The position numbers were made by a program, and so were the translations under genes. From Tubiluchus corallicola (Eukaryota; Animalia; Priapulida), in assembly GCA_030141605.1 (NCBI GenBank), contig JAQGDQ010000009.1, positions 1,054,001 to 1,118,000 on the forward strand: a DNA stretch of 64,000 nucleotides, given 5' to 3'. A model generated the notes under the pieces. The model was given only the letters and a program-made list of their open reading frames with translations, was not told where the DNA came from and made no database searches. How positions within the stretch are numbered: the stretch's first letter is position 1; each line of letters opens with the position of its first letter. This document shows, in pieces, positions 15,001 to 63,680 of this stretch.

Positions 15001-18000
15001 TTTCAAAGACTGTTACCAATATTTTTGTTTTAGCTGAACTCGAAGGTAGTGAAACCATTTTAGTGAAAGTCCAGCTTTTACTAAGAACCCCGATCTAGGC
15101 ATCAGACCCTGAAGAGTTCGATAGAAAGTAAAGGCAGGAAAAACAAATGAGAAAACTAAACAAAGAAAAGTGGTCATGAGATTAAAAAAAGAACAAATTT
15201 GAACTTTGTTGAAATAAAATAAAGTAAAATCTTCTCAGTTTTTGTCTCTTGAAATGCTTACGAGAAAACGTTTGTGAAGAGTTACTGACTGAAATGTTGA
15301 TGACATAACAGACAATGAATTGCAATTTTTAAAATTCAGTGCCTAATGCCAGCAGTTGTTTACACTTTGTATACTGCATCATTGAAAGTATGTTTTCGTA
15401 AATCTAAATAACAGAAACTCGATTTCAAATCTGTATTAAAACTCTCTTACTGATATTGCTGGTGTTAAATTCTAACTAAAAAAGGCTAAAGTTATTTTGT
15501 CTTAGTTGATCAGAGGGAATATTGGAAGAAATCCCTGCGACTGCAACTAGTGTAATTACCAAGTTTCATTGTTGTGCCTGACTAACTTGCTGGCCATTGA
15601 AAAATTTCACTTTTTTACGCAATATTTGTTAATTCTGTTACAATGAGTATATGCAGGTATAAACAGCCAACGAATCTATTAGGAGAGTTTCTTAAGCTTT
15701 GTAATGATCACATTTTTGTGTCAAGATCAATGTGCATTTTTGGTAAATTTTCAGTGTTTTATGCTGTTTTGTTCAGTAAATAACGTGTTTTTCATGGGGT
15801 ACCGACAGATTTTTCTCAAATAGTTTAATTATTTGCTTACTTAAACAAAAATAGCCAACATCTTCAAATAGTTAATGAAATATAATGAATTTGAAATCTG
15901 TATTAAAATTTAAAAACTGGGAAAAATTATCACCAGCAGAAATGTAAGCCATGCGTTCATTTCAAACAGCAACTTTTATGCAGTTTGCACTTTACAGTGC
16001 CTGCATTCTTTCAGACTACTATAGCAGTATTTGTGTTTGTGTAAACTTCAAAACAAATAAATATATAAATTTTTCAGTGTATGTATTACTTCGACATTTG
16101 AAAAATATTTTTTTGAAAACAATTTAGAATCCTTTATATGATCAATGGTTAACTGACCTGGTTTTGGTTAGTTTTTGATTGGTAGAATAACATCCAACAG
16201 GGTTATCACATGAGATTATGTCGATGTCTCCCTGACAGATTCTGAACCAGGCAGTATCACATTATCAAATTAAGTGAAAAGATTTCTATGTATGACTACA
16301 TCCCCATTATGTATGACTATAGCAAGTTTTAGCAGAGCAAGTATTTTTCTAACGTCCATTTTAAATGACAGTGGTTTTTAATAGTTCTTATTTTTATTTT
16401 GGTCATCTAAGTTAATGCTACAGCCAGTTTTAAAAGAGCAAGTACTTTTCAAATATCCATTTTAAATGACAATGGTTTTCCATAGTTGTTGTTGTTATTT
16501 TGGTCATCTAACTCAATGCTCTACTCTGGCAAGTGTGCTGTTCTTGTAAAATCTAAGCCAGCCATTCATTTTAGAAATTCACAAGCGTTAGCTCAAGTCT
16601 TAGAAAAAATACAGTTATGCATTCATTTGCTCTATCCATCACTTTTTCCAGCTCCAGAAAATATTTTTTTCTTGGTAATTAATTAGATGTCCTTTCTTCA
16701 AAGTAAAAAAATTTGTAGCAATTTGTTTGTTAGTTAGAGTTGTTTGATTAATTAATTTTAAATTGATTCAATTCCAAAGATGTTTATCTACTCTAGTTGA
16801 AATTTAGTATTATGATTACCTAGGATATCAGTGTTGCAAAACAAAAAAATTGCAGCTCTTCGTTAGTTAGTTACCTTAGAACTGTTTAATATATAATGTG
16901 AATTTATATGAATATGAATGAATATGCTAAATCCAATGAAGTTTAAATATGCTGCAGATAACAGAAAATCCATTGTAATACGTAAGACTGAAGGTTCAAA
17001 GACTGTCAATATTTTGTTTTAGCTGAACTCAAGAGCAATGAAACCATATTGGTGAAAGTCCAGGCTTTTACAAATAATCCCGATGCAGGCAAATTTACAG
17101 AGCCAGAACAACTTGATATTTCTTCAGGCAGTAAGTAATGTTGCTGTTATCACTGAATAATTAAGATTTGTTATCTAAGTTAGTTATTCTTTTAAACTAC
17201 ATTACTTTATTTAGAATGCACTATTCAACTTTCCTGGAATTGTGTGTGAAATCTACAAAGAAGCATGTTCCCACTGAAGGTGACTAGCCTAAATGAGTTT
17301 AAAGAGCATTTTTAAAATCCTAAGAAATTTTCAAATATCATTTGTTCGCACATATTCTATTTTCAAATAATTAATGAAGATTTTTCTTCCTCAGTCAAAA
17401 CACCAAAACGTGTATGAGGCAAGTGCATTATCAAATAGCTCAAAAACACCTGAAATATTTTAAAACAGTAATTTTGATTCCATAAGATCCTTAATATAAA
17501 ATAAAGAGATGCATATAGGTAACAAATTTCCATTTTCGAGAGTAGAACTGTGTTTTTAAATTGTTTTTTCGACTGCTGTGCCATCTTAATTATCTCTTAA
17601 TTAATGCTGTCAAGTCATCTATTTTTTAAACCGGGTCAATACTCACAGAAAAGTTTTTTTCAGATTTTAAATGCTGGGCTGCTTGTGATTTGCTTCCGTC
17701 ATTCGTAATTGGTGCTTTGCATATTTTTACAATTCAGCTGGGTGTAACATGATTTATCTTTTCTATATATCATGAGTACAATTTGACATGCTTTTCCAAT
17801 ATAATGCAATCAGCAGCTCTATTGCAAAGGTGCATTGGTAGACAATTATTATAAAATTGCTTATAGTTTTAAAAAAGATATTCACTATTTCATACTATTA
17901 TTGTATTCTTACAGAACCAAACCCTCCTACAGATCTTGCCTGTGAAACTCAAAGCTATAATAGTGTGAGTTGCACATGGAAAAGACCAGATGTTACAAAT

Positions 18001-21000
18001 GGCCCAATTTATAGCTACACAGTAAGATTTACAATGGACAACTGGGAAACTTACGATGATCTTACGACAATAGATGACTTTACATTTGCAACTTTAAGTA
18101 TGGCATTTTACTGTGGAAACAATTTTTGCTTTTCTTTAATAATTAGTTGATAGACTTATGTTTATACACTCATATCTTGGTTTCCGGACCTCACTTTTAT
18201 AGATATCAGAAAAATCGGACAAAATCTGCACCGTTAAAATCCCACATACTACGGACACGGTCCATTGTTTCGCGAGCTGCCCGCTAGTTGTTGGGCCGTC
18301 ACTTTGTTTGCGTCTTTACATCAGTGCACCTAGCACTGTGTAACGGCATGTGTGTAGCTTGCATGGCAGGAGCCACCCATACTAGACGTTTTTGAGACAG
18401 CTAGGTTATTGATTCTGTGTTACCGTGAATCTAATAGACAGGACCTACTGTATTAACATAGTATCTGTAAATACAGACATTCAGCAAATTCGGACCGACG
18501 TCTACAGTCCGGCAAAGCAGGATGTGAGTGTATACCCTGGTCACTTAAATTGTTTTCGTAACAATTGTGTAACGGCATGTGTGTAGCTTGCATGGCAGGA
18601 GCCACCCATACTAGACGTTTTTGAGACAGCTAGGTTATTGATTCTGTGTTACCGTGAATCTAATAGACAGGACCTACTGTATTAACATAGTATCTGTAAA
18701 TACAGACATTCAGCAAATTCGGACCGACGTCTACAGTCCGGCAAAGCAGGATGTGAGTGTATACCCTGGTCACTTAAATTGTTTTCGTGAGCATAGAAAA
18801 CTTTGTAAACTACTTGTACAGTTTTACAGGAAAACATTTTTTAGGATGCACAACAAGTTAAAACTTTTGTCAGCTTTAGTAACTAACGTTCTGCCATTTC
18901 TCATTTAACAATGTTGTCTATTTAGTATTGTCTGTTTAATATATTCACAGACTGTTTTCTGTCAAATTAGTAATAATTATTAATTGTTTTTTAATGCAAT
19001 TTGTTATGTAGCTGTGAATGGCGACAAGACAATAAAAATTAAAGTTGCTGCAAATGGTTATGTGAGGAGCGATTTTTCAGAGGAAGTGGAAGCCATTACA
19101 CCTGTTGGGCCACGTAAGTTAAACTCTTCTGTCATTACATTTTAATTTTAGACGGCCTTGTAACTTTTTATTAGCCCTAGCTCATTCGTATTTGTATATT
19201 TTACTGTCTTTTCCACAACCTGATTACCGCACTGCACTATTATTTCCTTACTTTTTGTTCTTCTAGAGAAAATGTACAACTCAGTAAAACTAAATGCAGA
19301 AGATGTTCATTTAGACTTAGAGGTAGTCGTAAAAACTGAAACTCTTTGAAACACATTTTATATTCTTCAAATGCAGTGCCAAACCTGGAATTCGGTTATT
19401 TGAAAAATATCGGAGATTGTTACATTTGCAGAGCATTAGGTGGAATTTGGGAAGGTGTTTGTATTCAACTGAACAGCGAAATTATTTTATTGAGCAACAT
19501 CCTGATCAAGCTTTTACTTTTTTTATTTTCATTTATTTTAAACTAATTTGTACTACAACTGAAAATAAATTCAACTGCCCATCTAGTTTTTAGTCAGAGT
19601 TACAATACATCTTATACTACTAAGTCTGGAGTTGTTAATTATGAAATATCATAAATTATTTAGCTTGGTAGTTTGTTTAGGTAGGTAATATTAAGTATTA
19701 CTGATTTTTTTTATGTGACTTTGTTATAACTTTGTTGAACTTTCTAAATTTGTAGCTCCATCAGTTGATTCTGGTGATGTACTATCAGCTTCGTCTGACA
19801 ACAAAAAATCTGTGACTATAGAAATACCATCCAATTACTTCAAAAATGATAATGGAGAAATAACCAGTTATGCAATCCTGGTAGCAAATAAGGAGTATGA
19901 GAGTCAGCTTGGTAAGTATTTGTTATCAAAATTTATTAATTGAAAGTTTGTTACAATGAATGATGACATTCTAATAAATTTCCAACGGGGAGTGTAATTT
20001 AGATATCTTTTACATAGTAGAAACCAGTAAATAAATATTTGTTCATGAAAGATATTAGTATATGTACTTAGAGTTGCAACTTATTTATAAGAGATTTTAG
20101 TCAACACAACTTTTCAGCAACTTACATAAATGCTCTACAGAAGTTGTTGATGAATGAGCACAGATAGTATTTTTCTTCATTGGTCTTCTTACTGACCATT
20201 TTTATTAAAAAGGGAAAAAGCTACTTTTTTATTTAGCTGTTTTATTGCCATTAAATAGCCCATTTTATTTCTGTCTTCATAGTTCATACATAGTGCAACA
20301 CGACATTGGACGTGAATAACAGCATTTCTCTTTTACCTTGTTTTTTTATGATATTAGTTGGTATTTTTGCTGGTCTTTAAATGTAATAAGTACGAAAGCA
20401 TTAGTGTTAAATCTGCTTATATTTTGCTCTAGTTTCTTTATTTATTGGGTATTCTAATGTAAAACATCTTTGCCATGATTTTATAATGTCATTACCTAAG
20501 TGTTAATGATACAATGCTTTAGTTACTATTGTTTACATTGTTTTTGAAAACTACATTTTTAGCTTTCTGTCAGTTTATTGTGGGCATTGTTATCAATACA
20601 AATTTTATGGACTGCCTTCTATTAATATTATAATTTTTGTATAACTTGCACAATTCCCAATGTGTAGAAATTTTATAACAACATATCCTTGTGCTATTGC
20701 AAAATTAAGATTTCATACATGATCTATGTAATTATTTTAACTGTATATTACTTATAATACTACATATCCGTTCTACAGTTATGTAAATAAATAGTCACAG
20801 TGGAATACCACATTTCTGAAGAACTAAGAAAAAATGTTGCAAGTATTGCAATTGTTACTGGTGTAACTGCTGATTTATTCATGCAGCTTCTGTTGTATTT
20901 TGTTCAATGAATAAGTAAACCTAATTCAATTATACTTAATTTTACTTATTAATGAGTGCTTACGCAGTTATTTGGCATTTCTGATTTTAGTAAACAATGT

Positions 21001-22975
21001 CTTCATGATGAAACTGTTATTATTAGTATTAAATAGAATAACTTATGTTAATTATCTTCTTAAACTTGCTGATATTTTGTCTCATACAGTTCCTGTTGAT
21101 AAACCCCAAGAATGTGAAAACTGTGCAGAAATTGTGAGACTGAACACATGGGCCTGGGCCGTAAATGCTAATGCTAAGATTTTCAGACCTTATCAGGCTT
21201 CTAGACCTGGAAAAAACCCATTCAATGCACAGAGTAAAATCTACACGGATAATCTTGTATCAGAAAATGCACCAGAAGCTCGCGGAGGATGGAAATACAG
21301 TTTATCTGCCGGCAAGTACCTATTTTATCTAATTAAGAATGTTTACTGATTTTTGTTACACCTGTTTTATATGATTGAGTCTTTGTGTTTAAGTTCTGTA
21401 GTTGCTGCTCTTACTGATATTGCTGGTGTTAAATTCTAACTAAACAAGGCTAAAGTTATTTTGTCTTAATTTATTAGAGCAATATTAGAAGAACTCCCTG
21501 CGACTACAACTAGGGCAATTGCAAGTTTCACTGTTGTGCCCGATTAACTTGCTGGTCATTGAAAAATTTCTCTTTTTACACTATTCGTTAATTTTGTTAC
21601 AATGAATATTTGCAGTTATAAACAGCCAATGGATCTATTAGGAGAGTTTCTTAAGCTTTGTAATGATCACATTTTTGTGTCATAATCGTTCTTAGATTTT
21701 GTGCATTTACATTCATTGTCCTGCTGTAGCTTCTAACATAACACTGTCGGAATGGGCATTACAGAAGTTGATATTGCTATAGCGACTGAGTAATCTTTCG
21801 TCTGCTGTCTAGGGTCGAGTTAAAAAAAACAGTGCAATTGTGTAATTGCAATACTTGCATTTGTATGTCTTTACACCTTGACGGAACACTATTTAATATA
21901 ATTTATTATATGCTTAACTTTCATCCATAAAATATTATATTTGGCCACTAGGTTATAGAACAAAGCGAAATACAAAGCTAATATATACAATTGGTGCAAA
22001 TGAGGATTGCGATAAGAATGCACTTGCCGTATACTGCAATGGTCCACTTAAAGATGGCCAAGAATACGTGTAAGTAAGATTAGTTATCAGCACGTTTGCA
22101 AGTATCATTTGTTCAGTAATATATAAAATATCTATATGCTTTACACTAATTGTGTTTTTATTAACTGAAAAATTAAAAATCAAAAACCGCTTACTATCAC
22201 AGTTACCATCAGATGAAGAAAGTTAGGTGTGAAGTGCTAAAAAAGTTAGAAAAATTAGAATTAGCTGAACTTTAATACATTATGCTTTACGTTAGACACA
22301 GAAATAAAGGTTTGAATTCTTTGTCCACAATACCACAGACTGCTATTGCCTTGCAAATGAGGACAGGAGGATTGATAGGAAACTTTGGTCTGTTAGAAAT
22401 TATGTTAAAAATTCTGCAAATTGCTCTGTTCAGTTGGGTGGGTTGAGTGCAAAGTGCCACCACATTTACTGTGGGTACTGGTGCAGTGCACTTTAGAAGA
22501 TTTACATGAATGTCAAATAAACTAATGGGGTTCATGCAGATGGATTTCACGAGAAGAGATAGTGGACAGTAGCTAAAAATCGGCTTGTGTGGTGACAGAA
22601 GGTAGACAGTTATATTTCGTTAAACCAGGAAAGCCCAGATAATTGTAAATTTTCCAAGTTAACAATTGAAGTGGGGAAAAAAAGACAGTTTCTATTTTTC
22701 TAATATTGTGAGTAAAATTGTCAATATGGGAGGTAGCCATGGAGAAGAACTGCTTACCATTTACACCGTTTGTATATTTTAACTCGATAAGGTTATTTGT
22801 TTGTATTATTTTGTTGTGCTGTTTCCATATGTTTTGCCTAAATTACATAAGGGTGTTAATTTTACTATGTTGTTTATTTTGAAGAATATATTGTTTGTTT
22901 TATGTTGTAGGATAAAAGTTAGAGCTTTCACTGCAGGAGGATATGTTGATTCACACTTAATTCCTGCTAAAATTT
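66..22975 (+). CDS. Gene A ectodomain exons: eight FN3 domains plus the membrane-proximal FN3-like (PTPRJ-type) region
   Basis: W-x-x-P...NG-x-I-x-x-Y and L-x-P-x-x-x-Y...A-x-N/T-x-x-G-x-G FN3 signatures; exons are phase 1-1 through 21311; YTIGANEDC...YCNGPLKDGQEY and IKVRAFT precede the TM. Confidence 0.88.
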
Positions 22976-25900
22976 GTAAGTTCGTTTAATAGCATTGAAA
23001 TTCTCTGTGATATTTAAATACTGACGAGTGTTTGTGCTACCCTTAATAATCTTATTTTTGCAGCAGACCCAGGTATTTAACGACGTTTCTCAACCTTGCT
23101 TTAATTAGTGTGATTACAGCGTTTTGTGGTATTTTTACAAATTTGTCCAAGGTTTTTCTGGTGCATGTTATCATTTATTTTTCAGCTTCCAAATTGTTAT
23201 GGCTTGTTGGTCTTGCAGCAGGCATATTGCCATTATGTGCACTGATCATTATTGCTCTAATGTACATCAAGCGGTCTAAAAAATCGTAAGTATACCGTAT
23301 GTGAGGGAAATAAATCTCTACTCATGCTTAAGACATTTGTAGCTACAGTTGTGGTCATTTGATTTCAGGATATCAATCTTTTTATTGTCCATTTTTTAAG
23401 TCACTGATGAAATCTCAATTTCTTTTGTTATCAATTTTAGTTGAGAGTTTCAATTTTAGATCAGTATTAAGTGGCCAGTTCTTCAGTTTGGGTAATTATT
23501 TGTAATTGTTATTTACGTTAAGGCCTAAATAGAACCATATCTGAATGCTGATAAGCTGTATGAATCTTCACCTGTTAACCGTTATATTTCTTTATTATTC
23601 AGAAAAAGTATTAATGAGGAAGATCTAGTAGAGCTGCATAAATTGGATGAGTGTATCTATGAGGACATTAGCAAACATTTTCGTAAAAGGTAGGACTATA
23701 TAAGTAATTGAAGACATTTTGAATTCAGAATCATCAGAAAGACATAATTATTGATAATTTTATGCAAATTACTTTTTTACATTTTTTAATTTTGCTAAGC
23801 CTTCATACCTAATGATGTTGGCGTAGCTGCATTGTTTGTTTTGTGCTTGGCTTCCTGAAATTTGTCAAAAAGGTGGAACAGTTATACATTATAGTGTATT
23901 TGTCATTATGCAGTACAGTAGTCACCGCTTAATAGACTCAAAAATGCCTGGAACGGGCCGCTTCTATTCAAATATACATAAAAACTATCGGTAACTTCCC
24001 TTATTTGTATGTGCCCAAACAGCCTTTCCTACTTTTATGTCATCTTTACTTTCCTTTTGTGGATTATATATGTAGAAACAATCATGTTAAGTACCGTTTT
24101 GTTTGGAAACAGGTACGTTTATCATGCGCTAATACGTTATTGTAGCGGTTTTGCTTTGAATCTGTTACCCGCTCGCCTACTGCAATTAATCTGGAAGCTA
24201 AACTTGCCTAGTGGTTTCTTTTTGATGCTCTTGTTGTAAATCATGCTTTCAGGCTTAATGAATTAACAGTCAAAGATGCAGGTACAGTATAATCAGCCGG
24301 TATTCCTTGTGACTTACGAGAGTGAACATCATACAGAAAATAAGGGCATATAGTTAAGCAGTTTGAAAAATGGAGCATAAGCATAAAGATCTAACAGTTA
24401 AGGAGAAACTGAAAATTTTAGAGCAGTACGATAGGCTTCCAAAGATGGGGCAGAGGTGTGCAGCAGCGCAGTTGAAAATTTCCCAAATACTCTCGGCAGA
24501 ATATTGAAAAAAACAATCTGAAATTGAGCAGTCAGCAAGCCAAAATGAGAATCTAGCATCTAAGAGGCGACACACAGGAAAAGACTGTGAAGTGGAGTCA
24601 GCGTTAAAAGTGTGGTTTACAAACACAAGAGAAAAAGATGCTCAAGTGAACGCTACTTTAATGCGACAGAAAGCAGAAGATTTGGCAAAGAAAATGCCCA
24701 AGCACGCCAAGCGCTAAATGTTTTATGAAAATACGTGCATCACACAGCAACAGATTTTCAACGTTTTTATAATTACGAGAACTTTGTGAGCCAACTTCTT
24801 CGCGAGAAAATGAAGCAGCCAACTTTGAAGAAATTTTTGTAATTTTTGCAAATAAACAGACTTGTGTGATCTAGAAAAGTAACTGCACAAAGGAATTTAG
24901 GCATAACTTCATTTCTAAAATTGATTAACTGCTTTTGCAGTGCGTAAGCTTATGACTCAAACTTCTATAGCAGTAATACTACACCCATAGGTTAATAGGT
25001 TCACTCAGTTAATTGGGTCAAAACACGTCGGTCCCAAAGTGAGTCTATTAAGCGTCGACTACTGTAGCTAAGAATAATGCTGGTTAAGCAGCTATAAATA
25101 GTGTTTCTGAATTCATAACATTTTGCTTTTAGACCTGTACCAGTTTCCAAGTTTGCTGATTATGTACGATATGTTGGCGAAAGGAAAATACTTCGAGCCG
25201 AGTTTAAGGTATTTTGTTTCTCAAAACTTTTCTTTAACCTGTAAATAATAGATTTGACTTTAATCGCTCCAGCTTTCTTGTACAAAGCAGTTGATTTGTG
25301 TAATTAAGTTGTTAGTAAATTCCTTTCTTTATGTTTGTTTATTTGAATTGTAAAAGAAATTAGAGTCATTGAAATTAATGCTAGTTTTCATTGCATATCA
25401 GGAGCTGATAGACATGAGCCCAAAACACTGTACAACGGTTGGACAAATGCCGGAAAATTTGTTAGCTCAAAAGAATCGGTTTGCAGAAATTGTGCCATGT
25501 ACGTCTGTGCATTTGCTAGATCTCACTTTTGTAGTCCTCACTGACATACCGTGTATGCGTGTGCATTTGCTAGATGTCGCTTTAGTAGTCCTGTCAAACG
25601 TATCATGTACGCGTGTGCATTTGCTAAATCTCGCTTTTGTAGCCTCACTGACATACCGTGTACAGTGTGCATTTGCACAACCTTGCTTTAGTAATTGTCT
25701 CAAACGTATCATGTATGTGTGTGCATTTTCTAAATCTCGCTTTAGTACTCCTCTCAAACATACCTAGTGCATATGTGGATTTGTTAAATCTTGCTTTAGC
25801 ACTCTCAAACGTACCATAATCACTTTTACTACCAAATATTATTGTTACCAAAATGTATTTATTACGTGTGTGTCAAGCCAAATAATTAAACAGACGCACT

Positions 25901-28900
25901 GAACAAACAGCTTTCTGTTACCTGCACAAATCATGCAGATGAAACATGGATCTGTGTTAGCAGTGTTGCTTCACTTGCATGTTTGCAGAACTATTTTACA
26001 TACTTAAGCGTTTATTATTAACTGTGATTATGAATTATTATCCTGTGGTTATTAGTCTTTGATGTAGAATATCACACTTCCTCGGGTGAACATACAAGCC
26101 TAGCACCCACATAAAGTGCGACATTGCAAATGTCTTGTGTAAATAATGAATTTAATTTGATTAGTTTGTGGAACTGCCATTCACTAGAACATGCCACATA
26201 TTAACTCAGAATTAAATGATGAATTTAATAAAATACAATTATCTTTTTCTAAAAATTCTCTTTGCATTTTGTTTTTAGATGATCATTCTCGAGTCACTTT
26301 ACTTCCTATCAGTGGTGATACCTCGTCGGATTATATCAATGCTAGTTTTGTGAAGGTATTTTTACATACATATCACTAGTGACAATGCAATAATGCTGAA
26401 TCGGAACTCTTGCAAATGCATATATGCACAATACAAGAATCAGCTAAATCACTCTGTTTTGCTGTAATTACAAGATATGATGAAACTATATGTTCTTAAT
26501 TTGTTTGCTCCAGTTCAATGGACTGTAAAAAAGTTAACGTAAAGTTCGATTTATTTAAATCCTAGATTTAAATGCCATGCACATACAAGAAAGAGATTGT
26601 TAACTTCGTGTAAATTATGACTGCTTTGGAATTATGGACGCAAGTAAGTTAAATGATTTAGTGATACTGATGTGTATTGCTATAACATAGTGTTCTATAG
26701 CAAGAAAACTAACCGGCTCTAAAATTTTCTGGTGCCCACTAGTGATTTTCCAGTAGACTTATGAAGCCAAGTTTGATGCTTCCAAAATTCTCATGAATCT
26801 TAGACTCAGCAGCCAAATTGTCATGTGGTTCCTCTTGTAATTAATATTTCAGTAAACTTTTAAAAATAATGAGGGACCTATGACAACTCCTTGTGTTGAA
26901 ATAGACGCCTAACATAAGAATCGGCATTATCAAAGTTAAATCGATAAGTATTATTCTATACTGTACATTTTATATTGCAATGCAGGTTTACATAACCTTA
27001 TGTTGTAAAATTTCGATGTGGGCTTAATACATTATGCATAAAATTGCCTGACCGTATATTAAGAAAAACATGGTTTTTGGTTCAACGGTTCAGCTTAGTG
27101 AACCTTTACTCTCAGTCTTAGCTGTCTGTCTATGATCTGAGACCGCTGATCCGATTCAAACCAAACTGGTGGGGTCTGAACTCTAACTGTGCAGTAGAAA
27201 TTGATTACCATGGTAACCATGGTTGCTTTGCAACGCATGATTATCTTCTAAAATTTGTACTTCACGGCTTTAAAAATTATCTCCTCCAAAATTGCTGATA
27301 TAGTGAAGGTGTGACTTGGTATTGTGGTACCTCTAATAATTATCTGAAACATGTCTGAGTGGAAGTTTAGAAATTTTATCTGTCTGTCTGTCTGCTTGTG
27401 TTTCCTCATTATTTCTCCAAGATCGCTGATTCTATTCCAACCAAACTTGTACAACAGGTGAGATCCATTTGGAACAAAGTTGCCTAGCAATGTCCGAAAA
27501 ACTTAAATTTCTAAAACTGGTACTTTTCTAGCAACTTTACTTATAACTTCAAAGCTGCTGAGGTAGTGAAGACGAAACCCTGTACTGTGATTCGAGGTAT
27601 AATTATCGAAAGTTCTAAGCATTTGCTGTTTTGAAATATGAGCACCATTATGACACCATAGTTATTTCAGGATTTATAATATCCATTATTTCTGGCCAAC
27701 TGGCTTGCATATTTTGAGTTGATTTATGTACAATTAATTTCACCCAAATTTACCATTATTCACTTTTAATAAGTTATAACAGGCACATTGTTGTATTTCT
27801 AAACTTTGCAATAGGGCCGAAGCTTCATTCGATTTTCTGCAGTGATGACTTTACAACAATCAACTTAGAGGAAAAAAACAGATGACAAGGTTACTGTGCA
27901 ATATTTGATGTTAGCTTAATTTTGACTGCTCCATTTTTAGGGTAATGACTCCCCTAGGGAATACATTGTAGCACAGTCACCCATGAAATCTACAGTGAAT
28001 GAATGGTGGAGGATGATTTGGGAGAACAATGTTGACATTGTTTTAATGCTTGAACAACTTGTGGAGAAAAATCAGGTACCGAATTTACTTGCTTTTTACT
28101 ACAAATACTTATGCCATGCAACAATTAGCAGAATATTTCCAAAATTTAAGTAATTTGATACCAGTTACACCCAGCTAGATAAGCTGTTTTATTAGCAAAA
28201 GTCTGCATATTGTGAGATTTAGTGTATATTGGTTATCAGAGCAGTTCACTTTTCTGACAAATTTTCTAGCTGACAAAAACAACAAATTGCAAATACAGTA
28301 GGTACTGTTTAGTAGACTCACGGTTAATAGACTCAGTCGTTTAATTTACTCAGAAACACCTGGAAAGGCCGCTTCTATTCAAATGTATATAAAAACTGTC
28401 GGTAATTGACTCAAATAGCTCCGCATAATTGTCTCAATTTTATTACTTCAGGCACTTAAAATAAGATGCTTATGTGTGACCAAAGAGCTTTTACTGTTTT
28501 TACATCTTCTTTACATGGATTTTGTGCACTATAATATATGTAAAAACAGTGATATGCACAGCTTTGTTTGTAAGTTGGTGAAGTACATTTATCACATGCA
28601 CTAATATGTTAGCTTAGTGGTAATGCTTTGAATCTGCCACATGCTTGTCCACTGCAGTTAACCTCATTGTTTGTGGAAGCTAAACATTTAATCACTTGCT
28701 CAAATGCAGCTCAAGCACTAGGTGACTAGGTGTTCTGCGTGAACATGTACAGCATACAGCAACAGATTTTCGACGTTTTTATCATTATGAAAATTTCATA
28801 AACCAACTTTTTCGTGAAGAAGTGAAGCAACCGACCGTCCATGAATTTTTGTAATTTTTAGCAACAATAATCAGTTTTTTGGAATTTTTTCTTTTTTTGT

Positions 28901-31900
28901 TAGTTCACTTATATAAATTATGCTTCTTATTAGTTCACTTACATAAATGATTGCACATACGTATTTTTGACATTAATTAGTTCTGCAAATTCATTTAAAG
29001 CCTTTGCAATGCATACTAAGATGAGTGTTGACTCATACTTATATGGTAGTAATATACTAAACCTGTTGGCTGATTGACTCAGTCGGCTAATTGGGTCAAA
29101 ACACTTCCATCCCAAAGTGTGTCTATTAAGCGGTGCCTACAGTTGTTCATAGATTTAGTTAAAAGTTAGTGTGATCATATTATTAACTTATTATATTAAC
29201 TTAAATGATGCATCTTTGGTGAGTTAGATGATTTGGTTTGTTTTGTACGACAAATATCGATTAGCTATATTTTATTTTATTATCTTCTTCTCACTTGATT
29301 TTTACCCATTTTGCACCATTTCCTCAGAAGTATTGAAGTGAATAATTTTTTCTAGGAAAGATGCTATAAATATTGGCCTTCACATTGTAGTCAATTGGTT
29401 TTTGGCAATATTCAAGTTACTGTGACTTTTGAAAGTCATAGTGAAAATTACTATATTCGCCTTATGGATGTAAGATCAGTAAGTATATTCAAAGATTCAA
29501 TTATTCCCCACTTTTTTGATTATGCCATGTTTTGGTCATGCAAAATACTAGTAATATAATCACGTGTAATTATGCAGTTATCATCATCTTATTTTTTATT
29601 TGTTTTTCTTTAATTTTTACCATTTAATTTTTGCTAATAGAACTACTCTATCAGATGTCAAGAATTCCAGCAATGTTGCATAATTTATTTGCTTGTATTA
29701 CTAGAAGAAATGACTGATGTTCATTGTAAGTTCAATTTTTTCTGAACAATTTGCAAGGTTGTATGACAGTAGGTATCTATTTTTTGGTAGTTAACAATGA
29801 TAATGACGATACTGAGGTTGATGGTAGTAGTAATGATGTGATGTGTAGCTTTTTATTAAAAACATATCTTATCCGTTATGGGTTGATAAACTAGTTCTGA
29901 ATACTACATGCACTTAGATTATTATGGTACATTTGAGTTCATGGGGCTCTAATGTGTTATCCTAATACATAAATTAATGTATGGATTGTGCAAAAATGTA
30001 TTCGGGTATAGGTTGCTCGGCATAATGAATTTTGCCTTTATGAATTTCATAAATCCGGCATTTATTGGTGGTTTTGTACGGCAAAGCCGACTTTTGTGTA
30101 AAAAAGGATATTAATAGTGCCGATGACAACTACGTCTTAATCACAATGTTAGTAGTGATGTTAACGATGATGAAAGGTAATGGTGATTTGTAGTAGTAGT
30201 AGTAGTAGTAGTAGTAAAATCTTTATTTGCCATTTTAAAACATTGACCATCATAATAGAAGACGGACAACCAGTGTTAGTTCATATAAAAAAAACATACA
30301 CTGTTCTGGGCAAATGCGTCTGGTAGTGATGGTGGTGACTGCGGCAGTGACATTGAATATTGGGATAGATGATGATGATGATGATTTTGTTACAGCAAGA
30401 AGAGCAACGAACATTAACACAGATACAGTTTTTTGGATATGTGGATGACATGTGCCCAGAAGACACATCAGCTTTTTTGTCTATACCACCAGTTGTTCAT
30501 ATACAACGAGGTGCTAATAATAGCTCACCAGTTCTTGTACATTGCAGGTAAATGACAAGTATTGTGTTATTTGCTTGATTCTTCACACATACACATGATG
30601 ATAAAAAAACTGTTAACGAAGTTTTCTAGTCAAATGGATTTACTTTTGGTATTTTGCTTGTATTTGATATTAAATAATGGTAAATTATGCGCTGCACAGT
30701 TTTAGACCGATAATTGCTACATTCTCATTTTTATTATATATCGAATTGAGGGTGAAACCAACTAGTTTTTCTTACTAGAAAGCCTTTTTTGAGTCAAACA
30801 TTTTGCTGCTAATATGCTATCAACAAGTCACAGTCTAGATTAACAATTTATAAACTATATACAAATAGGTAATATTATACCTGCTCTCATTAACATGTGT
30901 ACCAAGTTCATTAGTGTTTAACTTTCATACACTCTGTGACCGCTCATTTTTTGGCTATTGACTAAACAGAGAACAGCTCATAAAGAGTCATTGCAATTAA
31001 TATAAATATGCATAATATTTATTTGTAGTAGTGGATCCGGTAGGACTGGGTCATATGTGTGTGTCGACCGCTTAGTAAAATCCATTCAACAAGGAGCTGA
31101 TACTATTGATGTGTTTGGGCTTGTACTGCAACTGTTAGAGTATAGAATAAAAATTATCCAGACTGAGGTAAAGAAATTAAATTGGTAAATTGAACTTTTG
31201 TCACAAACATGTTAATTACTAGCCTTCTTGCTTGTAATATTATTCAGCAAATAATGCATTCGAATGACGCTTAATGTATTTGTTGATGTTCTGATGTAAT
31301 TCTGATGAAATAATCTAATCGATGATTTTAGTAGTGAATTTCTTTATTACTGTTATAGGCTGAGTACATGTTTATACATAGATGCATTAGAGATATGCTG
31401 GCCAAGCAGTCTGGTGATGCAGTCAATGAAATTACATGTAGGTATCCACATATTGGTATACTCTATGTTTACTGCCATTCCAGTGCGATAACTACACACC
31501 AGCATGCCTCGTAGGTGAAGGGGGTGGGGATAAGTGTTAGAGGGGGCCATTGTCGTAAAAAAAGCCAACATGGGCACCAACAATAATTACATTTGTCAGA
31601 CACGTTGCAAGGTTGTATGACAATAGGTATCTATTTTTGGTAGTTCATAATGATAATGACGATACTGAGGTTGATGGTAGTGGTAATGATGTGATGTGTA
31701 GCTTTTTATTAAAAACATACCTTGTCCGTTATGGGTCGATAAACTAGTTCTGGTTACTGCATGCACTTAGATTATTAGCGTACATTTGAGTTCATGGGGC
31801 TCTAATGTGTTATCCTAATACATTAATTAATGTATGGATTGTGCAAAAATGTATTTGGGTATAGGTTGCTCGGCATAATGAATTTTGCCTTTATGAATTT

Positions 31901-33007
31901 CATATATCCGGCATTTATTGGTGATTTTGTATGGCAGAGCCAACTTTTGTGTAAAAAAAGGATATTAATAGTGCTGATGACAACTACGTTTTAATCATAA
32001 TGTTATTAGTGATGTTGACGATGATGAAAGGTGATGGTGATTTGTGATATTGGTGGTGGTGACTGCGGCAGTGACATTGAATATTGGGATAGATGATGAT
32101 GATGATTTTGTTACAGCAAGAAGAGCAACGAACATTAACACAGATAGTTTTTTGGATATGTGGATGACACATATGTTGGCTTTTTTTCATAAATCATTTT
32201 TAAAATTGTAGCACATCAGTAAGCTGTAAAAAATGTGCATTGAATAATAAGAGTAGATCATTTTGCAGGGGTCTCCGAAGCGTAGGTATGCTGCTGTGCT
32301 GTTTTCGACTATTAGCAGCCATTTTACCTCCTAATGGGAAAATTAAACTTAGCTTGTATAACCACAAGTTTATGTTTTAAAAAGATGACACATTAAATGT
32401 ATCTAAATAGACAGGCTGATCTTACATATACCAAACGAAGTACTTCAGTAGCAAAGTTATCAAAATTTTAAAAAATTCTATAAAGTGTTACAAAAATTAA
32501 TTTATCAAAAAAGAGTGTAGATCTGGTGAACCATGGTTTTTTGGACGTTCCATAAAGTGAATAGAATATCTATTTTTATCTACATCACTTTATGCATTAT
32601 TAGATTATTTCAGAACTAGTTTGTTTTGTAAGTTTGCATTAGCAGATGCTCATTTTAAGCTTTACTCTTTGGTATTTAAAATAAAATTTCAATACCTTTT
32701 CATATTTTCAGAATTTAGACAAAATTTTGTTCTTGGTGGTTCTATATTTCTTTGAACGTGTTTTAGTATTTCTCTGTGTTTTATTCCTTGTTTTTCTTGT
32801 ACCAGATGCTGATCTTACATTGTATTCTGGAACAGTGCTGAATTTTTTGGTTATTTCTGCTTATCGCATTTTCTTTTTTGCGTAGTCTGTAACTCTTTTT
32901 TGTTCATTCACGTTTACGGCATTTTTTAAAATTATTTAACTTATTTTTCAGATGAAGTTCCGATTTCACCTTCTACCCTGGTTAGTGCAAACAAAAACAT
33001 TAGCTAA
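66..33007 (+). CDS. Gene A: R3/PTP10D-like receptor protein tyrosine phosphatase with degenerate catalytic motifs (5'-partial, 28 exons in window)
   Basis: Phase-consistent exon chain: 66-359, 1670-1864, 2616-2726, 3972-4256, 5386-5580, 8908-9015, 9817-10095, 11517-11717, 13125-13223, 13472-13690, 17023-17130, 17915-18097, 19012-19113, 19756-19911, 21090-21311 (GC donor), 21952-22069, 22911-22975, 23186-23285 (TM), 23603-23689, 25133-25208, 25402-25498, 26279-26355, 27941-28075, 29356-29478, 30396-30547, 31029-31167, 31359-31437, 32952-33007 (TAA). It encodes FN3 repeats, a YCNGPLK membrane-proximal domain, a TM segment and PTP motifs KNRF, DYINAS, WRMIWE, YWP, VHCSSGSGRTG. Confidence 0.9.
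6495..7241 (+). mobile_element. Non-autonomous Tigger/pogo-like DNA transposon
   Basis: TA|CAGGAGGTGCCACTTAATAGACTCAC ... GTGAGTTTATTAAGCGGCACCTACTG|TA terminal inverted repeats; body similar to the copies at 23916, 28296 and 52372. Confidence 0.8.
9140..9375 (+). mobile_element. 3' remnant of an RTE-like LINE
   Basis: Reads KIKIRRLRWVGHLIRL...KRPPGKIKINW then a decayed AAD*NR*R, matching the RRLRWxGH / RPxGRP / AxDRxxW C-terminus of RTE-clade ORF2. Confidence 0.65.
10706..11057. repeat. Tandem duplication, 2 x about 175 bp (period 177)
   Basis: tgtgatacacttgcag...ctttgtactatt starts at 10711 and again at 10888; the matching gene B intron (about 62615-62790) has one copy. Confidence 0.9.
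15034..15095 (+). pseudogene. Truncated, frameshifted pseudo-exon copy of the 108-nt half-FN3 exon
   Basis: Intact acceptor, then ctgaactcgaaggtagtgaaacc...gtccagctttt (1 nt shorter than gene B gtccaagctttt); similarity ends near gatctaggca and there is no donor. Confidence 0.8.
15444..15723 (+). repeat. Dispersed copy of intron segment 21408-21682
   Basis: ctcttactgatattgctggtg...gatcacatttttgtgtca is present at both places with scattered substitutions. Confidence 0.85.
18163..18534. mobile_element. MITE with about 28-bp imperfect TIRs at a TA site
   Basis: TATACACTCATATCTTGGTTTCCGGAC (left) vs GTCCGGCAAAGCAGGATGTGAGTGTATA (right); the paralogous gene B intron (near 56750) lacks it. Confidence 0.7.
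18337..18788. repeat. Tandem duplication 2 x 223 bp with a 6-bp spacer
   Basis: 18337-18559 and 18566-18788 look identical and are separated by aacaat; the duplication copies the MITE right end. Confidence 0.92.
23186..23285 (+). CDS. Gene A transmembrane exon
   Basis: ttttcag acceptor and gtaagt donor; translates SKLLWLVGLAAGILPLCALIIIALMYIKRSKK, a hydrophobic span followed by a basic stop-transfer. Confidence 0.88.
23916..25064 (+). mobile_element. Tigger/pogo DNA transposon deletion derivative with transposase N-terminal remnant
   Basis: TA|CAGTAGTCACCGCTTAATAGACTCA ... TGAGTCTATTAAGCGTCGACTACTG|TA. From ATG 24370 it reads MEHKHKDLTVKEKLKILEQYD..., then after a frameshift ...VESALKVWFTNTREKDAQVNATLMRQKAEDLAKK (Psq-like and CENP-B-like HTHs). 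No DDE domain. Confidence 0.85.
25133..31437 (+). CDS. Gene A PTP-domain exons (atypical / candidate pseudophosphatase)
   Basis: Exon sizes 76, 97, 77, 135, 123, 152, 139, 79 match gene B (82, 91, 77, 135, 123, 152, 136, 64). Motifs read YIVAQSP, GYVDDMCP, HCSSGSGRTG, IIQTEAEY. Confidence 0.88.
25499..25815. repeat. About 54-bp minisatellite, about 6 units, starting at a splice donor
   Basis: Unit gtacg/gtatg..gtgcatttgcta.atc.cgcttt.gtag.cct...; GT positions 25499, 25553, 25607, 25660, 25713; A/B subtypes alternate in the first four units. Confidence 0.85.
27120..27620. repeat. Degenerate interspersed repeat, DINE-1/Helentron-associated-like
   Basis: Two imperfect blocks of (TGTC)n followed by gctgat.c.att.caaccaaact; family assignment is from resemblance only. 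Confidence 0.35.
28296..29142 (+). mobile_element. Non-autonomous Tigger/pogo-like element (same family as 6495 and 23916)
   Basis: TA|CAGTAGGTACTGTTTAGTAGACTCACGG ... GTGTGTCTATTAAGCGGTGCCTACAG; shared internal ggccgcttctattcaaat and aattgggtcaaaacac. Confidence 0.78.
30190..30320 (-). mobile_element. Short retroposed 3' tail (AATAAA plus (TAC)n)
   Basis: Minus strand reads caAATAAAgatttt(act)n; the segment is absent from the duplicate at about 32040. Confidence 0.45.
31605..32169 (+). pseudogene. Duplicate of 29751-30450 carrying a truncated WPD-loop pseudo-exon (32117-32169)
   Basis: Near-identical intron plus acceptor ttttgttacag|caagaagagcaacg; 2-nt deletion (cagatagttt vs cagatacagttt); ends at gatgaca. 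Confidence 0.88.
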
Positions 33008-33589
33008 GAGCAAAAGCAAAAACCAGAAAGTGTGTTGCATTCTGTTTCCGGATGTGCTGAGTGACCATTTATAGTGACCAGATATTCTTTACAAAGTGAG
33101 AATATGACTAAAAAAATAAGTTTTGATTCTCTGGACTATGAAGCTAACCTACAAACAGAGCATTTTAGATTGCACAGTTTTGGTAATTACTGCATTACGA
33201 TGTAATGTAAAGATTTCTGTAACTTTCTTACAAGTCTTTATACTATCTTTGTTTGTCGTTACTTCTAATATATTTCATTATTACTACTCTACCTACTTCT
33301 TAACTTGTGTAGTGATTTCACTGTATTTTTAAACTTGTTCAGAATTTTACTAATTTTTATACTTTTGCTTCACTTCAATAATTTTTAGCATGTATTTAAG
33401 TGTTTAAGATGTAAAAATTTATTGCTTTTACAAAAATGATCTAATCTAATGTAGCATTCATCCTAGACAGTTGCTCACTTCTATTTTAGAAGTTTCTCTT
33501 CATTCACAGGGTTAAAATTCATACTTGAGAGTTTCTACATTTCACACGTATAGAAAATTCTGGAATGCATGCTCTGTTTACTTTGTATT

Positions 33590-35583: not shown

Positions 35584-36618
35584 TCAGTTAGTAATAATGA
35601 CTTCCACTAGTGCATTTCCTTCTGTACTGCTTTCGGCTTGACAACTTAGGATTCTCTTAGCTGCCTTTCTGAATTCTCGATAACGGATAGTATAAATTAA
35701 AGGATTGATCAGAGAATTGACCATATTCAGGGGTCCAACTGCAGAAATTGATATGATCTCAGTCCCCCGGTACGAATTCAGCAATAAAGCTATCTGCATC
35801 GGTGTCCAGCATATTATCAAAGATATGAGGAGGAGTATGATCGTTCTTGCGACTGTTATCTCACTTTTAATAGACGTATCTTGTGGACTTGATACTTGAT
35901 TATTTTGCGTGTTTATTGCACGGATGTGCCGACGTGCAACAGTGAACACTCTGCTGTATAAGCATGTGATAATTAAGAGAGGAAGGAAAAACTGTACGAT
36001 AGTAAGAGCGGTGTAGTACTCAATGCTGAAGATTTTGTTATCATCGCAAACAGTGAATGTATCTGCATCGCCTATGCCCATCATAGGAAAGAGAGAAAAT
36101 ACTGATGCAAAGATGACGATACCTGCTGTCATGATACGTGCCTTCTGTTTAGAAATTAGGTAATGGTATTGAAATGGATGAACGACGGCAACATACTGAT
36201 TAAATGCAACCGCTAAGAGACAGAATGTAGAGATGATGGCTGACATAATCACGGTAGAATACGACCAAAGACAGAAATTCCTGCTTGCGTCAACTCTAGC
36301 ATCCGAATATTTAAGAAAACTGAATGCTATATACAGTGTTGAATAAAATACATCCGATGCAGAGAGCAGGGATAAAAAGAAATACTTGACATCTTTGAAA
36401 TCTGTATACCTTTTTTTGAAAAACACAGCAAGTACTAAGCTGTTAAGGATGATCACAATACTAGACAAAAAACATCTTGATAGAATATCTTTGACACTCC
36501 ATATGTGAGTGAGTGTTGTAATCAGATAAGTATCATTGCAGCCGCTCTCTTTTGATTCATTGCAATTCATCTTTATCAACGACTGACTACGTCTATTTCT
36601 GAAATTTGGAAAATGCAT
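35584..36618 (-). CDS. Intronless class A (rhodopsin-like) orphan GPCR, 344 aa
   Basis: Seven hydrophobic segments; TM2 LSASD, TM3 Cys and FNQYVAVVHP (DRY position), TM5 FLP..LY..ARRH, TM6 CWTP, TM7 NSLINPLIY, helix 8 EFRKA, N-terminal sequons NES and NDT. The second Met may be the real start. Confidence 0.93.
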   Translation of the reverse strand: MHFPNFRNRRSQSLIKMNCNESKESGCNDTYLITTLTHIWSVKDILSRCFLSSIVIILNSLVLAVFFKKRYTDFKDVKYFFLSLLSASDVFYSTLYIAFSFLKYSDARVDASRNFCLWSYSTVIMSAIISTFCLLAVAFNQYVAVVHPFQYHYLISKQKARIMTAGIVIFASVFSLFPMMGIGDADTFTVCDDNKIFSIEYYTALTIVQFFLPLLIITCLYSRVFTVARRHIRAINTQNNQVSSPQDTSIKSEITVARTIILLLISLIICWTPMQIALLLNSYRGTEIISISAVGPLNMVNSLINPLIYTIRYREFRKAAKRILSCQAESSTEGNALVEVIITN

Positions 36619-36676
36619 CCAAATAAGTGTCTTGAAAAGTATTTAAGTATTTTCTCTTTGAAGTCTCCTTTACTCC

Positions 36677-36683: not shown

Positions 36684-37012
36684 TCCTAATTTAATTTACT
36701 TATTAATAAAAATAATAATGAAATTAATTTTGTAATTGCTCCTTCAAATAAAACTTTAAAACTTAAAAATGTCATAATTACAATTACATATTTAAGAAAA
36801 TGCCATACAATTAAAATTATTTAAAATTTTCACACAAAACGTACAAATTACATGCAGGCAAAGAAATTGCATTCAAAAAAGTAGGTAGTTATTAAAGTTT
36901 TCAACTTTTTACATAATAACTTTAAAGTGATGTGTCTTCAATTGTTTTGCCTGGCATAATTTAATCTTGTTAGTCAGCTTTTATTGTTGGTTGTAACTGA
37001 TCTGATTTAGTT

Positions 37013-37217
37013 ACTGTAGTAGTAGTGGTAGTGGTAGTGGTAGTGGTAGTGGTAGTGGTAGTGGCAGTGGCAGTGGCAGTGGCAGTGGCAGTGGCAGTGG
37101 CAGTGGCAGCGGCAGCAGCAGCAGCAGTAACACCACCACCAGCAGTAGCAGCAGTACTAGTTGCTGTTGCTGTTGTTGCTGCTGCTGCTGATTCTGTTGT
37201 AGTAGTAGTAGTTGTTA
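37013..37217. repeat. Compound tri/hexanucleotide microsatellite
   Basis: (GTA)n(GTAGTG)n(GCAGTG)n(GCA)n...(GCT/GTT)n(GTA)n. Confidence 0.95.
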
Positions 37218-40200
37218 CGAGTAGACTGTGCATGAGTTGGAAACTTAAAAAGTGTTATATTGAGCACTCACCTTTATTAATGTTCTAAATCATTTGCTTG
37301 ATTCCTGAGCTACTGCTGATGTTGCATTTGTTACTTGCAACTGTTCCAGCCATGGAGAAGCTCCATTAGTGAATGGAGAAATGGACTGTTAACTTCATTT
37401 CGCACTCAGTCAGATCATGTGCACTGACTTCTGATATCCCATTGCTAATTGTCAGATTGATGTAGCCTGTGGCACAATTCTCATCTTGCCATTCGTGTAA
37501 TTCAAAAGGTTGTGTTAATGTACATGCAAAGGGTAAAATAACAAAAATGCTGATGTCAGTAGCTCGTCGTTCTTTTTGTTGGTCTAATGGTGTTTTTGGT
37601 TTTGTGTAGGTTCTATAGGAGATCAAGATCTTTTTCTTCCTCCAGGCTGTGTAGAAAAGTTAGAGGTGTTTGAAATCTTTCAGACAGTGTGCCATAAATG
37701 GAAATGTGACTGATCATTTCAAATTCATTTCTTTATTGTTTATTAAATTGTTTTAGATTATTTAATAGTGTACTATTAGAAGTTTTTAATAAAAGAAAAT
37801 AATTTAAAACAATTTGCTAATTTATTTCTTTTCACTAATAAGGAGGCAGTTTAAGAGCAAAGCCTTTAGTTGTCCTGTGTCTCTAGCTTTTTTGTGGCCA
37901 CTTAAACATTTTGTTATATTTTTTACTTTTGTTTATCAAAAATTAGAAAACATAGAAGTGAGATGTGCCTTAATTTTTTATATACTCCAAGGTAAAAAAG
38001 GAAATTTTTTGGTATTATCTTGAAATTGTTGGAAATTAAAAATGGTTAAATTGTCAGAGCAATTTTTGACTTAAATGTATTATTTGCTAAACTGTTGATA
38101 TGTAGTAACGCTAAGGAATATGTTATAAGTGTAAAATCAGTTTGCTAGAAGTAAAAATAATTGTCGCTCTCAAACATTTTGCAGCTGAGTAGTAAAGTCG
38201 AAATGATAAAGTACTTTTAATATTTTACCTATTTAATACATAATTACATTCCATGTTGAACCTTAGATAGGTGTTGTCCTTTAGATAATGTTGGGAAAAA
38301 CGACTTTAAAATGTGTATCTTGTTTGTTATTATAGTGGACAAATTTAAAATTGTTTAATGTTATCTCAATGCTCAAGTGTGCATTTGTAACTTGTATATG
38401 ACCAATATATATGCTAGGCAACGTTTATCTTCTTTATGATGTGTATTGATACAAATAAAAAAATATTTCAGTTGCAATTTTACAAGTATTGGCTAACTGG
38501 TACTTTAAGTACGTGTTATGAGCACTTCACTGTTATGAGCATGCTGGATGACATTACTCAAGACATTTTTGCTGATTTTATATGAATAGTGTTTAATTAT
38601 TAAAGTTGAGATAATCTGCTTTTAAATATCATTGACAGTATATCTACTAGACTACTTGTAAGATTGTAAGAATAGAGTGACATCAACATTGCTTTTGAAT
38701 GAAGTGCAGAGTATGTGATGATGGTTATAATATGGGGTGTCTCATAAGTCGCTATGCAGTTTGATGATATGAAATTTCGAATTATAAAAACTAGAATTGA
38801 TATCTTGACACCTTTTGTATTATTTATTTCAGCTCTGAGTTTTGTTTTGTGTGGCTTGTTCAGTAAAACTTTTGAAACTACTCAAGCTGATTTTAATATA
38901 CTTTTGTATTTTTAGAAAGACTGCAATTTCATATACAAATTCAGCAATGACCTGCTTGATAAGCACAATGTACATCAATGTAAGTGACATAATGCAAATA
39001 TCTAATTGATTAAATTGTTTGATTGACTCAAAGTTAGTTTAGTAGAAAATGCATCCATTTGTAAAGGACTGGGATTTGTCATTCAACTCAGATTTTCTGA
39101 GTAAGCTTGCTGTGCCGTAATTACATAAAATTTTAATGCTAAGAATGATTATGTATTACGTATTTAGCTTTTTATTTACGTCATTACTCTAACTATGATT
39201 CTTAATTGATTTTTCAGGAAGAAATTCTATTGCTACGGTTGTTACTGTGGACGACTTGCTATTCTGCGCTGTGCAGAGTGCTTTTACATGCAAAGTATGC
39301 AGCTGTGAGTATTATATTAAAGGTCTTTCACATAGTAATTAATTTTTTTGTATTCTATCTACATCATTTTTAGAATAAACTTATTTAAAAAAAATGTGTG
39401 GGCATGCATTTTATTTGAGAAATTCTAGTTATTTAAATAGCATTTGAGGTGCATTAATTATTATCATTATCACTGTCACTTTTCATCAGTGTTAACAATT
39501 TTTGTTGTCCAAAATACAAAATCTCTGGGTGTTTGACTGGCCTTTGATAAGTTATGACAAATAATTAATAATTTTTAGGTATGTTGCCATGTTGCTTCTA
39601 TAATAAATGTTAAAAGTACAAGCTTTCAATAGATTTTCTTGTAAGTGATCTGATTTTATGTCGCACAGTATTTACTCACAGTCATGTGCCTCAGTTTGGA
39701 TAAAATGGAAAAATGCAATGAAAGCAAATATGCCACATAAAAATTATAAACAATTTATTATAATTTAACATTAATAACCACCAAAGCACCACATTACCAA
39801 CCAGCTGCCTTTCTTTCTTAATCAAAACTAAATAAATTAATCTTTATTCCAACAAACCATCAAAATAGCACCAAATATATATATTTAGCAACGCTATCAA
39901 AATTACATAGTTTATAGTACATATCAAAATTAATGATATTTTTTCTTTGGTCCGTATATTATCACAATTTGTACAAAGATAATAACTGGTACCTTTTTAT
40001 AGAAATACCAAATATTATATATGAAAATACTTTGTGAATATGTTAATCACATTATTTTTATATCGCAGAAATACAGAGCAAAATTAACTATTAAGACTAA
40101 ACATTAAACAGACTAATTTAATGACCTACCTATGATTCCAAACTATCGGAACAATCATATTTTACAATGCTTATAAAATATACGTAATGATTAAAGAATC

Positions 40201-43157: not shown

Positions 43158-63680
<20,523 letters not shown>

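Follow-up and report, generated by a model that had tools for sequence, protein, structure and literature searches.

A putative R3-type receptor pseudophosphatase in Tubiluchus corallicola and its possible pairing with a canonical paralog via a converted ectodomain

A stretch of 64,000 nucleotides from the priapulid Tubiluchus corallicola (GenBank assembly GCA_030141605.1, contig JAQGDQ010000009.1, positions 1,054,001 to 1,118,000 of the forward strand; hereafter the window, with all coordinates counted from its first letter) carries two neighboring receptor protein tyrosine phosphatase (PTP) genes, A and B. With a probability of roughly 0.55, we read gene A as encoding a receptor which would be nearly inactive on phosphotyrosine, whose ectodomain was matched to that of B by repeated gene conversion, and which may serve as a decoy of B. 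A maintained and likely near-inactive PTP domain of the R3 receptor type is an already known kind; what is new is its combination with a canonical paralog, to which it is tied by an ectodomain likely shaped through gene conversion. The first-pass annotation of this locus had overlooked the earlier description of blunted R3 domains (PMC5336234) as well as the homogenisation of the ectodomain with that of gene B.

The window is AT-rich, intron-bearing DNA of the animal type with a GC content of 0.28-0.37. Splice-site modelling over its 64 kb placed the two genes tail-to-tail and inverted relative to each other, with gene A on the forward strand (66-33008; 28 exons, 1352 residues within the window) and gene B on the reverse strand (63680-43160; 970 residues within the window). 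Gene A starts left of the window, so that its N-terminus lies outside. Each of the two proteins comprises FN3 repeats with a long FN3 unit next to the membrane (read from the translation in the case of A), followed by a single transmembrane helix and a single PTP domain, an architecture that PMC5336234 defines as R3. A second PTP domain was not found in either gene by tblastn within the window, and two juxtamembrane exons searched alone gave no Pfam match. A C-terminal YxN motif as in PTPRB, PTPRJ, PTPRH and PTPRO is missing in A, the last exon of which is inferred, while B has two.

The single PTP domain of gene A departs from the canonical domain of B in seven motifs, all of which had been listed in the first-pass annotation and were found again in the sequence. 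On the forward strand, exon 27941-28075 encodes AQSP (27971-27982), EWW (28001-28009) and MLE (28046-28054), and NQERC spans the junction 28075/29356 into exon 29356-29478, which begins with ERCYKYWP. Exon 30396-30547 encodes YVD in place of WPD (30438-30446, counted from the exon start) and the catalytic Cys. The P-loop HCSSGSGRTG is split between 30540-30547 (HCS) and 31029-31050, so that exon 31029-31167 provides its remaining part (SGSGRTG, with Ser at C+2, the second residue after the catalytic Cys) through QTE at 31159-31167; AEY follows at 31359-31367 in the final PTP exon (31359-31437), giving QTEAEY. In an alignment with PTPN4, the register of YVD against WPD is free of gaps. The catalytic Cys, the Arg, the general-acid Asp and the Q-loop Gln of active classical PTPs are retained, whereas their WPD hinge and HCSAGxGR P-loop are replaced by YVD and HCSSGSGR. 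Further losses comprise the hinge Pro, the loop Gly, the Val at C+4 and the second Q-loop Gln, and the phosphotyrosine (pTyr) loop is altered to KNRFAE.

As annotated before, exons, phases and splice sites are intact: the five PTP exons of A (135, 123, 152, 139 and 79 nt) bear AG/GT ends, agree in all phases with those of B (135, 123, 152, 136 and 64 nt), and join to a frame with a single, terminal stop. A contig of sequencing run X1, which is possibly the source, matches 30396-31550 with 0 differences. Contigs of run X4, which comes from a second study, show 0 differences at 30844-31042, including the P-loop Ser codons, and at 31227-31450, and 3 differences (places not listed) against 30396-30597. 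A second live WPD exon was sought in gene A and not found. Downstream, 31605-32169 on the forward strand is a recent local duplicate (94%) of 29751-30450, carrying a truncated and frameshifted copy of the start of the YVD exon near 32117-32169.

The changes had been called a systematic de-tuning of the domain, which is too strong a description. We defined 61 invariant columns from 12 canonical single or first (D1) PTP domains, a set containing both forms of B and many fish PTPRG/Z domains. Gene A keeps 15 of the 24 columns located in catalytic or substrate loops and 25 of the remaining 37 (Fisher p 0.78), and radical changes, with a negative BLOSUM62 score, make up 3/9 of the loop changes and 2/12 of the others. 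Judged from these counts, the domain appears generally relaxed with its fold preserved. The total of 40/61 lies between those of second (D2) domains of the LAR type (49-50) and of PTPRG/Z (29-37).

Two of the replacements have precedents. In HD-PTP (PTPN23), Ser at C+2 abolishes the activity on 6,8-difluoro-4-methylumbelliferyl phosphate (DiFMUP) and the back-mutation restores it, while IA-2 has Asp at C+2 (PMC2661844, as far as accessible); the first-pass annotation had named the HD-PTP precedent correctly. For a bacterial PTP, a variant with the hinge Trp changed to Tyr is described, by a secondary report in the available text of PMC10536487, as having a quasi-open loop that is not catalytically competent. 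Since C+2 Ser and the hinge Trp-to-Tyr change each cripple other PTPs, gene A is likely a pseudophosphatase, and by analogy with these enzymes we predict with good confidence that its activity on phosphotyrosine is negligible. Gene A resembles HD-PTP and IA-2 by the non-Ala residue at C+2 combined with retained Cys and Arg, but HD-PTP is cytosolic with a WPE loop and IA-2 has Asp instead of Ser (same source). The ectodomain of IA-2 differs from that of gene A. Mechanistically, Ser at C+2 would distort the phosphate cradle, and the loss of the hinge Trp-Pro would keep the Asp loop from closing, so that catalysis would be very slow despite the presence of Cys, Arg and Asp. Classical PTP substrate traps lose Cys or Asp; because gene A keeps both and its pTyr loop is altered too, a function as a substrate trap seems less likely.

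The retention of Cys, Arg and Asp would also suit a slow but real enzyme acting selectively on one phosphotyrosine protein or on a substrate other than protein, e.g. a phosphoinositide, and this we consider quite unlikely. In its favor, A and PTPRQ have RC and VFG in common and both lack YxN, and the 12-residue FN3 B-C loops, seen by eye in A and also in B, follow a code which the accessible part of PMC5336234 ties to PTPRQ. PTPRQ is thus an R3 member with an altered WPD loop as well, but it has WPE and the canonical P-loop HCSAGVGR, neither of which occurs in gene A with YVD and its C+2 Ser. Three exons of A scored lower against the PTPRQ structure than against other R3 structures (32.1 vs 39.5, 14.2 vs 16.1 and 20.7 vs 29.7 bits), PTPRQ is absent among the structure matches of the YVD exon, and it was never the closest solved structure for any exon of A; the exon scores consequently led us to reject closeness to PTPRQ. 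HD-PTP and PTPRU showed no activity on lipids either, according to the source parts at hand. The phosphoinositide activity proposed earlier did not hold up against the retained Asp of A, where PTPRQ has WPE, and the structure ranking; on these sequence and structure comparisons, a PTPRQ-like lipid phosphatase is unlikely.

That the domain is maintained and not decayed, as the first-pass annotation had claimed, was borne out by several lines of evidence. Over 264 PTP codons, A and B share 39% amino-acid identity with saturated synonymous sites (proportion of synonymous differences, pS, 0.78); since the frame is nevertheless whole, the domain of gene A is old and maintained. When neutral drift was simulated under an assumed rate of indels, the cytoplasmic frame of 963 nt, splice sites included, survived with a chance of about 3.5e-4 at 0.05 substitutions per site and in 0/5000 runs at 0.1 substitutions per site. 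A equals B at 40/61 invariant columns compared with 71/218 other columns (p 6e-6). In addition, contig 26 of run X6, which is spliced, comes from a relative and is about 89% alike, joins 26353 directly to 27939, the predicted splice that connects exon 27941-28075 to the one before. Run X6 was guessed to be RNA; it does not cover the later PTP exons, which was not taken as evidence. Five of the at least 25 coding differences of X6 in three exon pieces were listed: four are synonymous, and the remaining one, V>A, moves toward the consensus. X6 retains the Ser of AQSP through a synonymous change, which is seen in run X5 too. Gene A thus combines constraint with expression, as a pseudophosphatase does, expression being represented by the relative's spliced contig for the earlier PTP exons. 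Runs X5 and X6 have the same species label as X1, yet differ by about 10-15% over gene A, which suggests that a cryptic species is involved or that the label is loose.

The dead exon copies in A (15034-15127 and the partial WPD exon copy near 32117-32169) and the searches for orthologs would be compatible with gene A being a young pseudogene or an artefact of the assembly. No ortholog was found with the YVD exon and the juxtamembrane exon in a protein collection (proteins up to 2000 aa), in metagenome contig scans, or in the Atlas with the juxtamembrane exon; against 50% representatives, the YVD exon gave 3 matches, all judged to be unrelated low-complexity or repeat proteins. Against such an origin stand the intact frame despite saturated synonymous sites, the relative's spliced contig, the flat single-copy depth in X1 and the matching contigs from the second study, by which it is largely refuted and highly improbable.

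The second main line of evidence comes from the ectodomain, which gene A encodes in 17 exons at 66-22975 as a series of FN3 repeats together with the long juxtamembrane unit, in which YCNGPL and RAFT occur. Positions 9496-22990 of A and 64000-53595 of B align as inverted copies including the introns (76-98% identical), the ectodomain exons of B (53610-63680, reverse strand) forming a near-copy of A 9817-22975. All 10 of 10 ectodomain introns align, with scores of 89-2347 against shuffled maxima of 25-35, whereas the 11 introns located from the membrane onward reach 21-32 compared with 24-29 after shuffling, i.e., shuffle level. The similarity collapses at the transmembrane exon of A (23186-23285): exon pS is 0.31 before it and 0.58-0.88 from it on, and 58/399 synonymous sites differ in the ectodomain versus 180/238 from the membrane inward (p 3e-55). 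Along the ectodomain, the divergence is uneven as well. Identity per 500 bases reaches 0.96-0.98 distally and 0.76-0.95 nearer the membrane, and the synonymous divergence (dS) of the distal, middle and proximal parts is 0.08, 0.19 and 0.23, respectively (heterogeneous, p 0.01). Both genes also have a GC-AG intron in common, located after 21311 on the forward strand in A and at 54467 on the reverse strand in B.

A dead, frameshifted FN3 exon copy at 15034-15127 in A differs from the exon of B by 4 differences and 1 gap in 69 nt, while the live copy of A (17023-17130) differs from B at 11/69 positions. We take the dead exon as the probable footprint of a recent exchange with B. Uneven divergence along the arm and a B-like dead exon beside an older live copy would be better explained by repeated exchange superimposed on an older paralog than by a single duplication.

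These observations have to be weighed against the possibility that A is a maintained pseudophosphatase scaffold with a role of its own, its ectodomain resembling that of B due to neutral conversion or one partial duplication onto an older tail. The steady fall of identity toward the center of the inverted pair, from 0.96-0.98 to 0.76-0.95, is what passive exchange gives, and the introns are homogenised as much as the exons. The abrupt stop at the transmembrane exon, in exons and introns likewise, speaks against this, and a single event is at odds with the uneven ages along the arm and the pair of an old and a new exon copy. We regard such a scaffold as unlikely on the whole, with passive conversion as a real rival to any model in which the exchange is selected.

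In a further alternative, the catalytic domain descends from an ancient blunted lineage, either the divergent R3 type known from Ciona or D2 domains, and not from a duplicate of B. In the part of PMC5336234 available, invertebrate deuterostome R3 proteins with altered loops are reported from Ciona (WPQ, WSV), acorn worm (WPI) and sea urchin (WVD, WTD), together with a divergent invertebrate R3 type without the YxN tail. By eye, Ciona QTP, RC, CSNGSGR and QTLxEY (same source part) resemble QSP, RC, CSSGSGR and QTEAEY of A. Our tree had 19 rows, leaving out 8 of the 27 extracted domains, mostly near-redundant PTPRG/Z, and held no Ciona or PTPRQ rows. The best tree grouped A with B at 90/88 (not starred), A being on a long branch of 1.22, and both joined a domain resembling PTPRH at 83/87, the sampling being thin, but a tree forcing A together with D2 domains was not rejected (approximately unbiased test, p-AU 0.18). 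Against an ancient lineage also count that D2 domains arrive at similar states independently (AQAP, SAGSGR) and that RKRPVPV and all intron phases are common to A and B. We consider this origin rather unlikely; it concerns the descent of the domain and is compatible with the function proposed here.

In comparison with known R3 PTPs (PTPRB, PTPRJ, PTPRH, PTPRO and Ptp10D), gene A agrees in having an ectodomain that, as far as the window reaches, is made of FN3 domains only and includes a long juxtamembrane unit, as well as a single transmembrane helix and a single PTP domain; the best structural matches of its exon 31030-31167 are PTPRJ, PTPRO and PTPRB. Unlike these, it has neither WPD nor the Ala of the P-loop nor a YxN tail, all three of which are present in B. 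The divergent invertebrate deuterostome R3 proteins resemble A by the altered WPD loop and the missing YxN tail, in Ciona by eye also in the P-loop and Q-loop, but they keep the Trp, while A has lost Trp and Pro and keeps Asp (PMC5336234, available part). In the first R3 matrix of that paper (S2, by eye), the Trp is kept in 31/31 rows; since all 31 retain it, YVD goes further than the published R3 loop changes. An ectodomain homogenised with a canonical paralog is not described for the divergent R3 proteins in the accessible part of the same paper.

Leukocyte paired receptors have homogenised ectodomains and distinct cytoplasmic parts (PMC3210942); KLRC, Ly49, PIR, Siglec-11/16 and CD300A/C belong to this kind. 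The same combination is found in A and B, in one genome. The leukocyte pairs are built on immunoreceptor tyrosine-based inhibitory (ITIM) versus activation (ITAM)-type signaling in vertebrate immune cells, whereas A and B differ by a predicted blunted versus an active enzyme. PTPRU, an R2B receptor pseudophosphatase with a retained catalytic Cys, has been proposed as a decoy for active paralogs such as PTPRK, as the source parts at hand describe; it has two PTP domains and another ectodomain, unlike A, and the inactivity of A is a prediction.

In the proposed mechanism, selection would keep the fold of gene A as a scaffold, and the inverted arrangement would let the two arms exchange sequence, with exchange tolerated only outside the membrane. 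A and B would then bind one ligand or each other. B would dephosphorylate and dock via YQNV and YENV, and A would bind without catalysis and without YxN docking output, dampening B through capture of ligand, dimer formation or retention of substrates. A shared ligand, co-expression and selection for homogenisation are inferred here. Going one step further, we tentatively suggest that A and B may be a paired-receptor system, in which selection-backed conversion keeps one ectodomain on an enzyme and a pseudoenzyme and the ratio of A to B sets the signal.

Several points weigh against gene A being a near-inactive, conversion-matched decoy. The catalytic loops changed no more than other conserved columns, and none of Cys, Arg, Asp and the E-loop Glu was lost along a branch as long as 1.22 changes per column, which residual catalysis would also explain. 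A evolved significantly faster than B with 3/8 outgroups and not with the other 5. The five listed differences of X6 include none from the YVD or P-loop exons, and a loose contig end at 25465 carries, by eye, several amino-acid replacements directly ahead of KNRF, implying that the domain evolves fast. The evidence for conversion rests on one genome; conversion between inverted neighbors can be neutral, and a single partial duplication joined to an older tail would be another route to the same arrangement.

Taken alone, the blunted domain would be one more member of a described, unassayed invertebrate R3 set, with a loss of Trp-Pro that is absent from the published R3 matrix as accessible. To our knowledge, ligands and regulation of R3 PTPs are poorly understood. 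A natural pair of an active and a predicted inactive receptor with one ectodomain would provide a built-in control for the role of the ectodomain and for the tuning of a paralog by a pseudophosphatase. As homogenisation of immune receptors marks a fast-evolving shared ligand, the pair may, speculatively, indicate self- or pathogen-recognition. If true, the paired-receptor principle would be carried over from vertebrate immune receptors to an invertebrate enzyme-linked receptor. A search of open-access full texts, with exact phrases required jointly, returned no report combining these ideas for receptor phosphatases.

Further features of gene A include the juxtamembrane and first phosphatase exons at 23603-26355 on the forward strand, namely 23603-23689, 25133-25208, 25402-25498 (KNRFAEIVP) and 26279-26355. 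The first of these encodes IYEDI (23655-23669), which does not occur at the corresponding place in B and resembles a site for SH2 domains of the Src family. The probable last coding exon (32952-33008, forward strand), placed by phase and stop, encodes the tail ITYEVP.

Gene B encodes its transmembrane helix and canonical PTP domain at 52166-43160 on the reverse strand. The WPD loop and the catalytic Cys are encoded twice, in exons of 152 nt each at 46245-46396 and 45266-45417 (reverse strand), which are 48% identical in protein, saturated at synonymous sites, and both canonical. As a transcript with both would be out of frame, the two probably exclude each other; a phrase for mutually exclusive PTP exons was not found in the literature among the matches listed.

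Introns of both genes harbor a high-copy family of small transposons (28294-29143, 6493-7248, 23926-25066 and 52365-53076), in which the copy near 24370-24700 contains what we take, by eye, to be a decayed transposase fragment of the pogo/Tigger type. Between genes A and B lies an intronless gene for a G-protein-coupled receptor (GPCR) of the rhodopsin family (35584-36642, reverse strand). Located between this GPCR and gene B are an exon-like Thr/Ala-rich repeat frame (36970-37660, reverse strand) and short Cys-rich exon-like pieces (38918-39310, forward strand).

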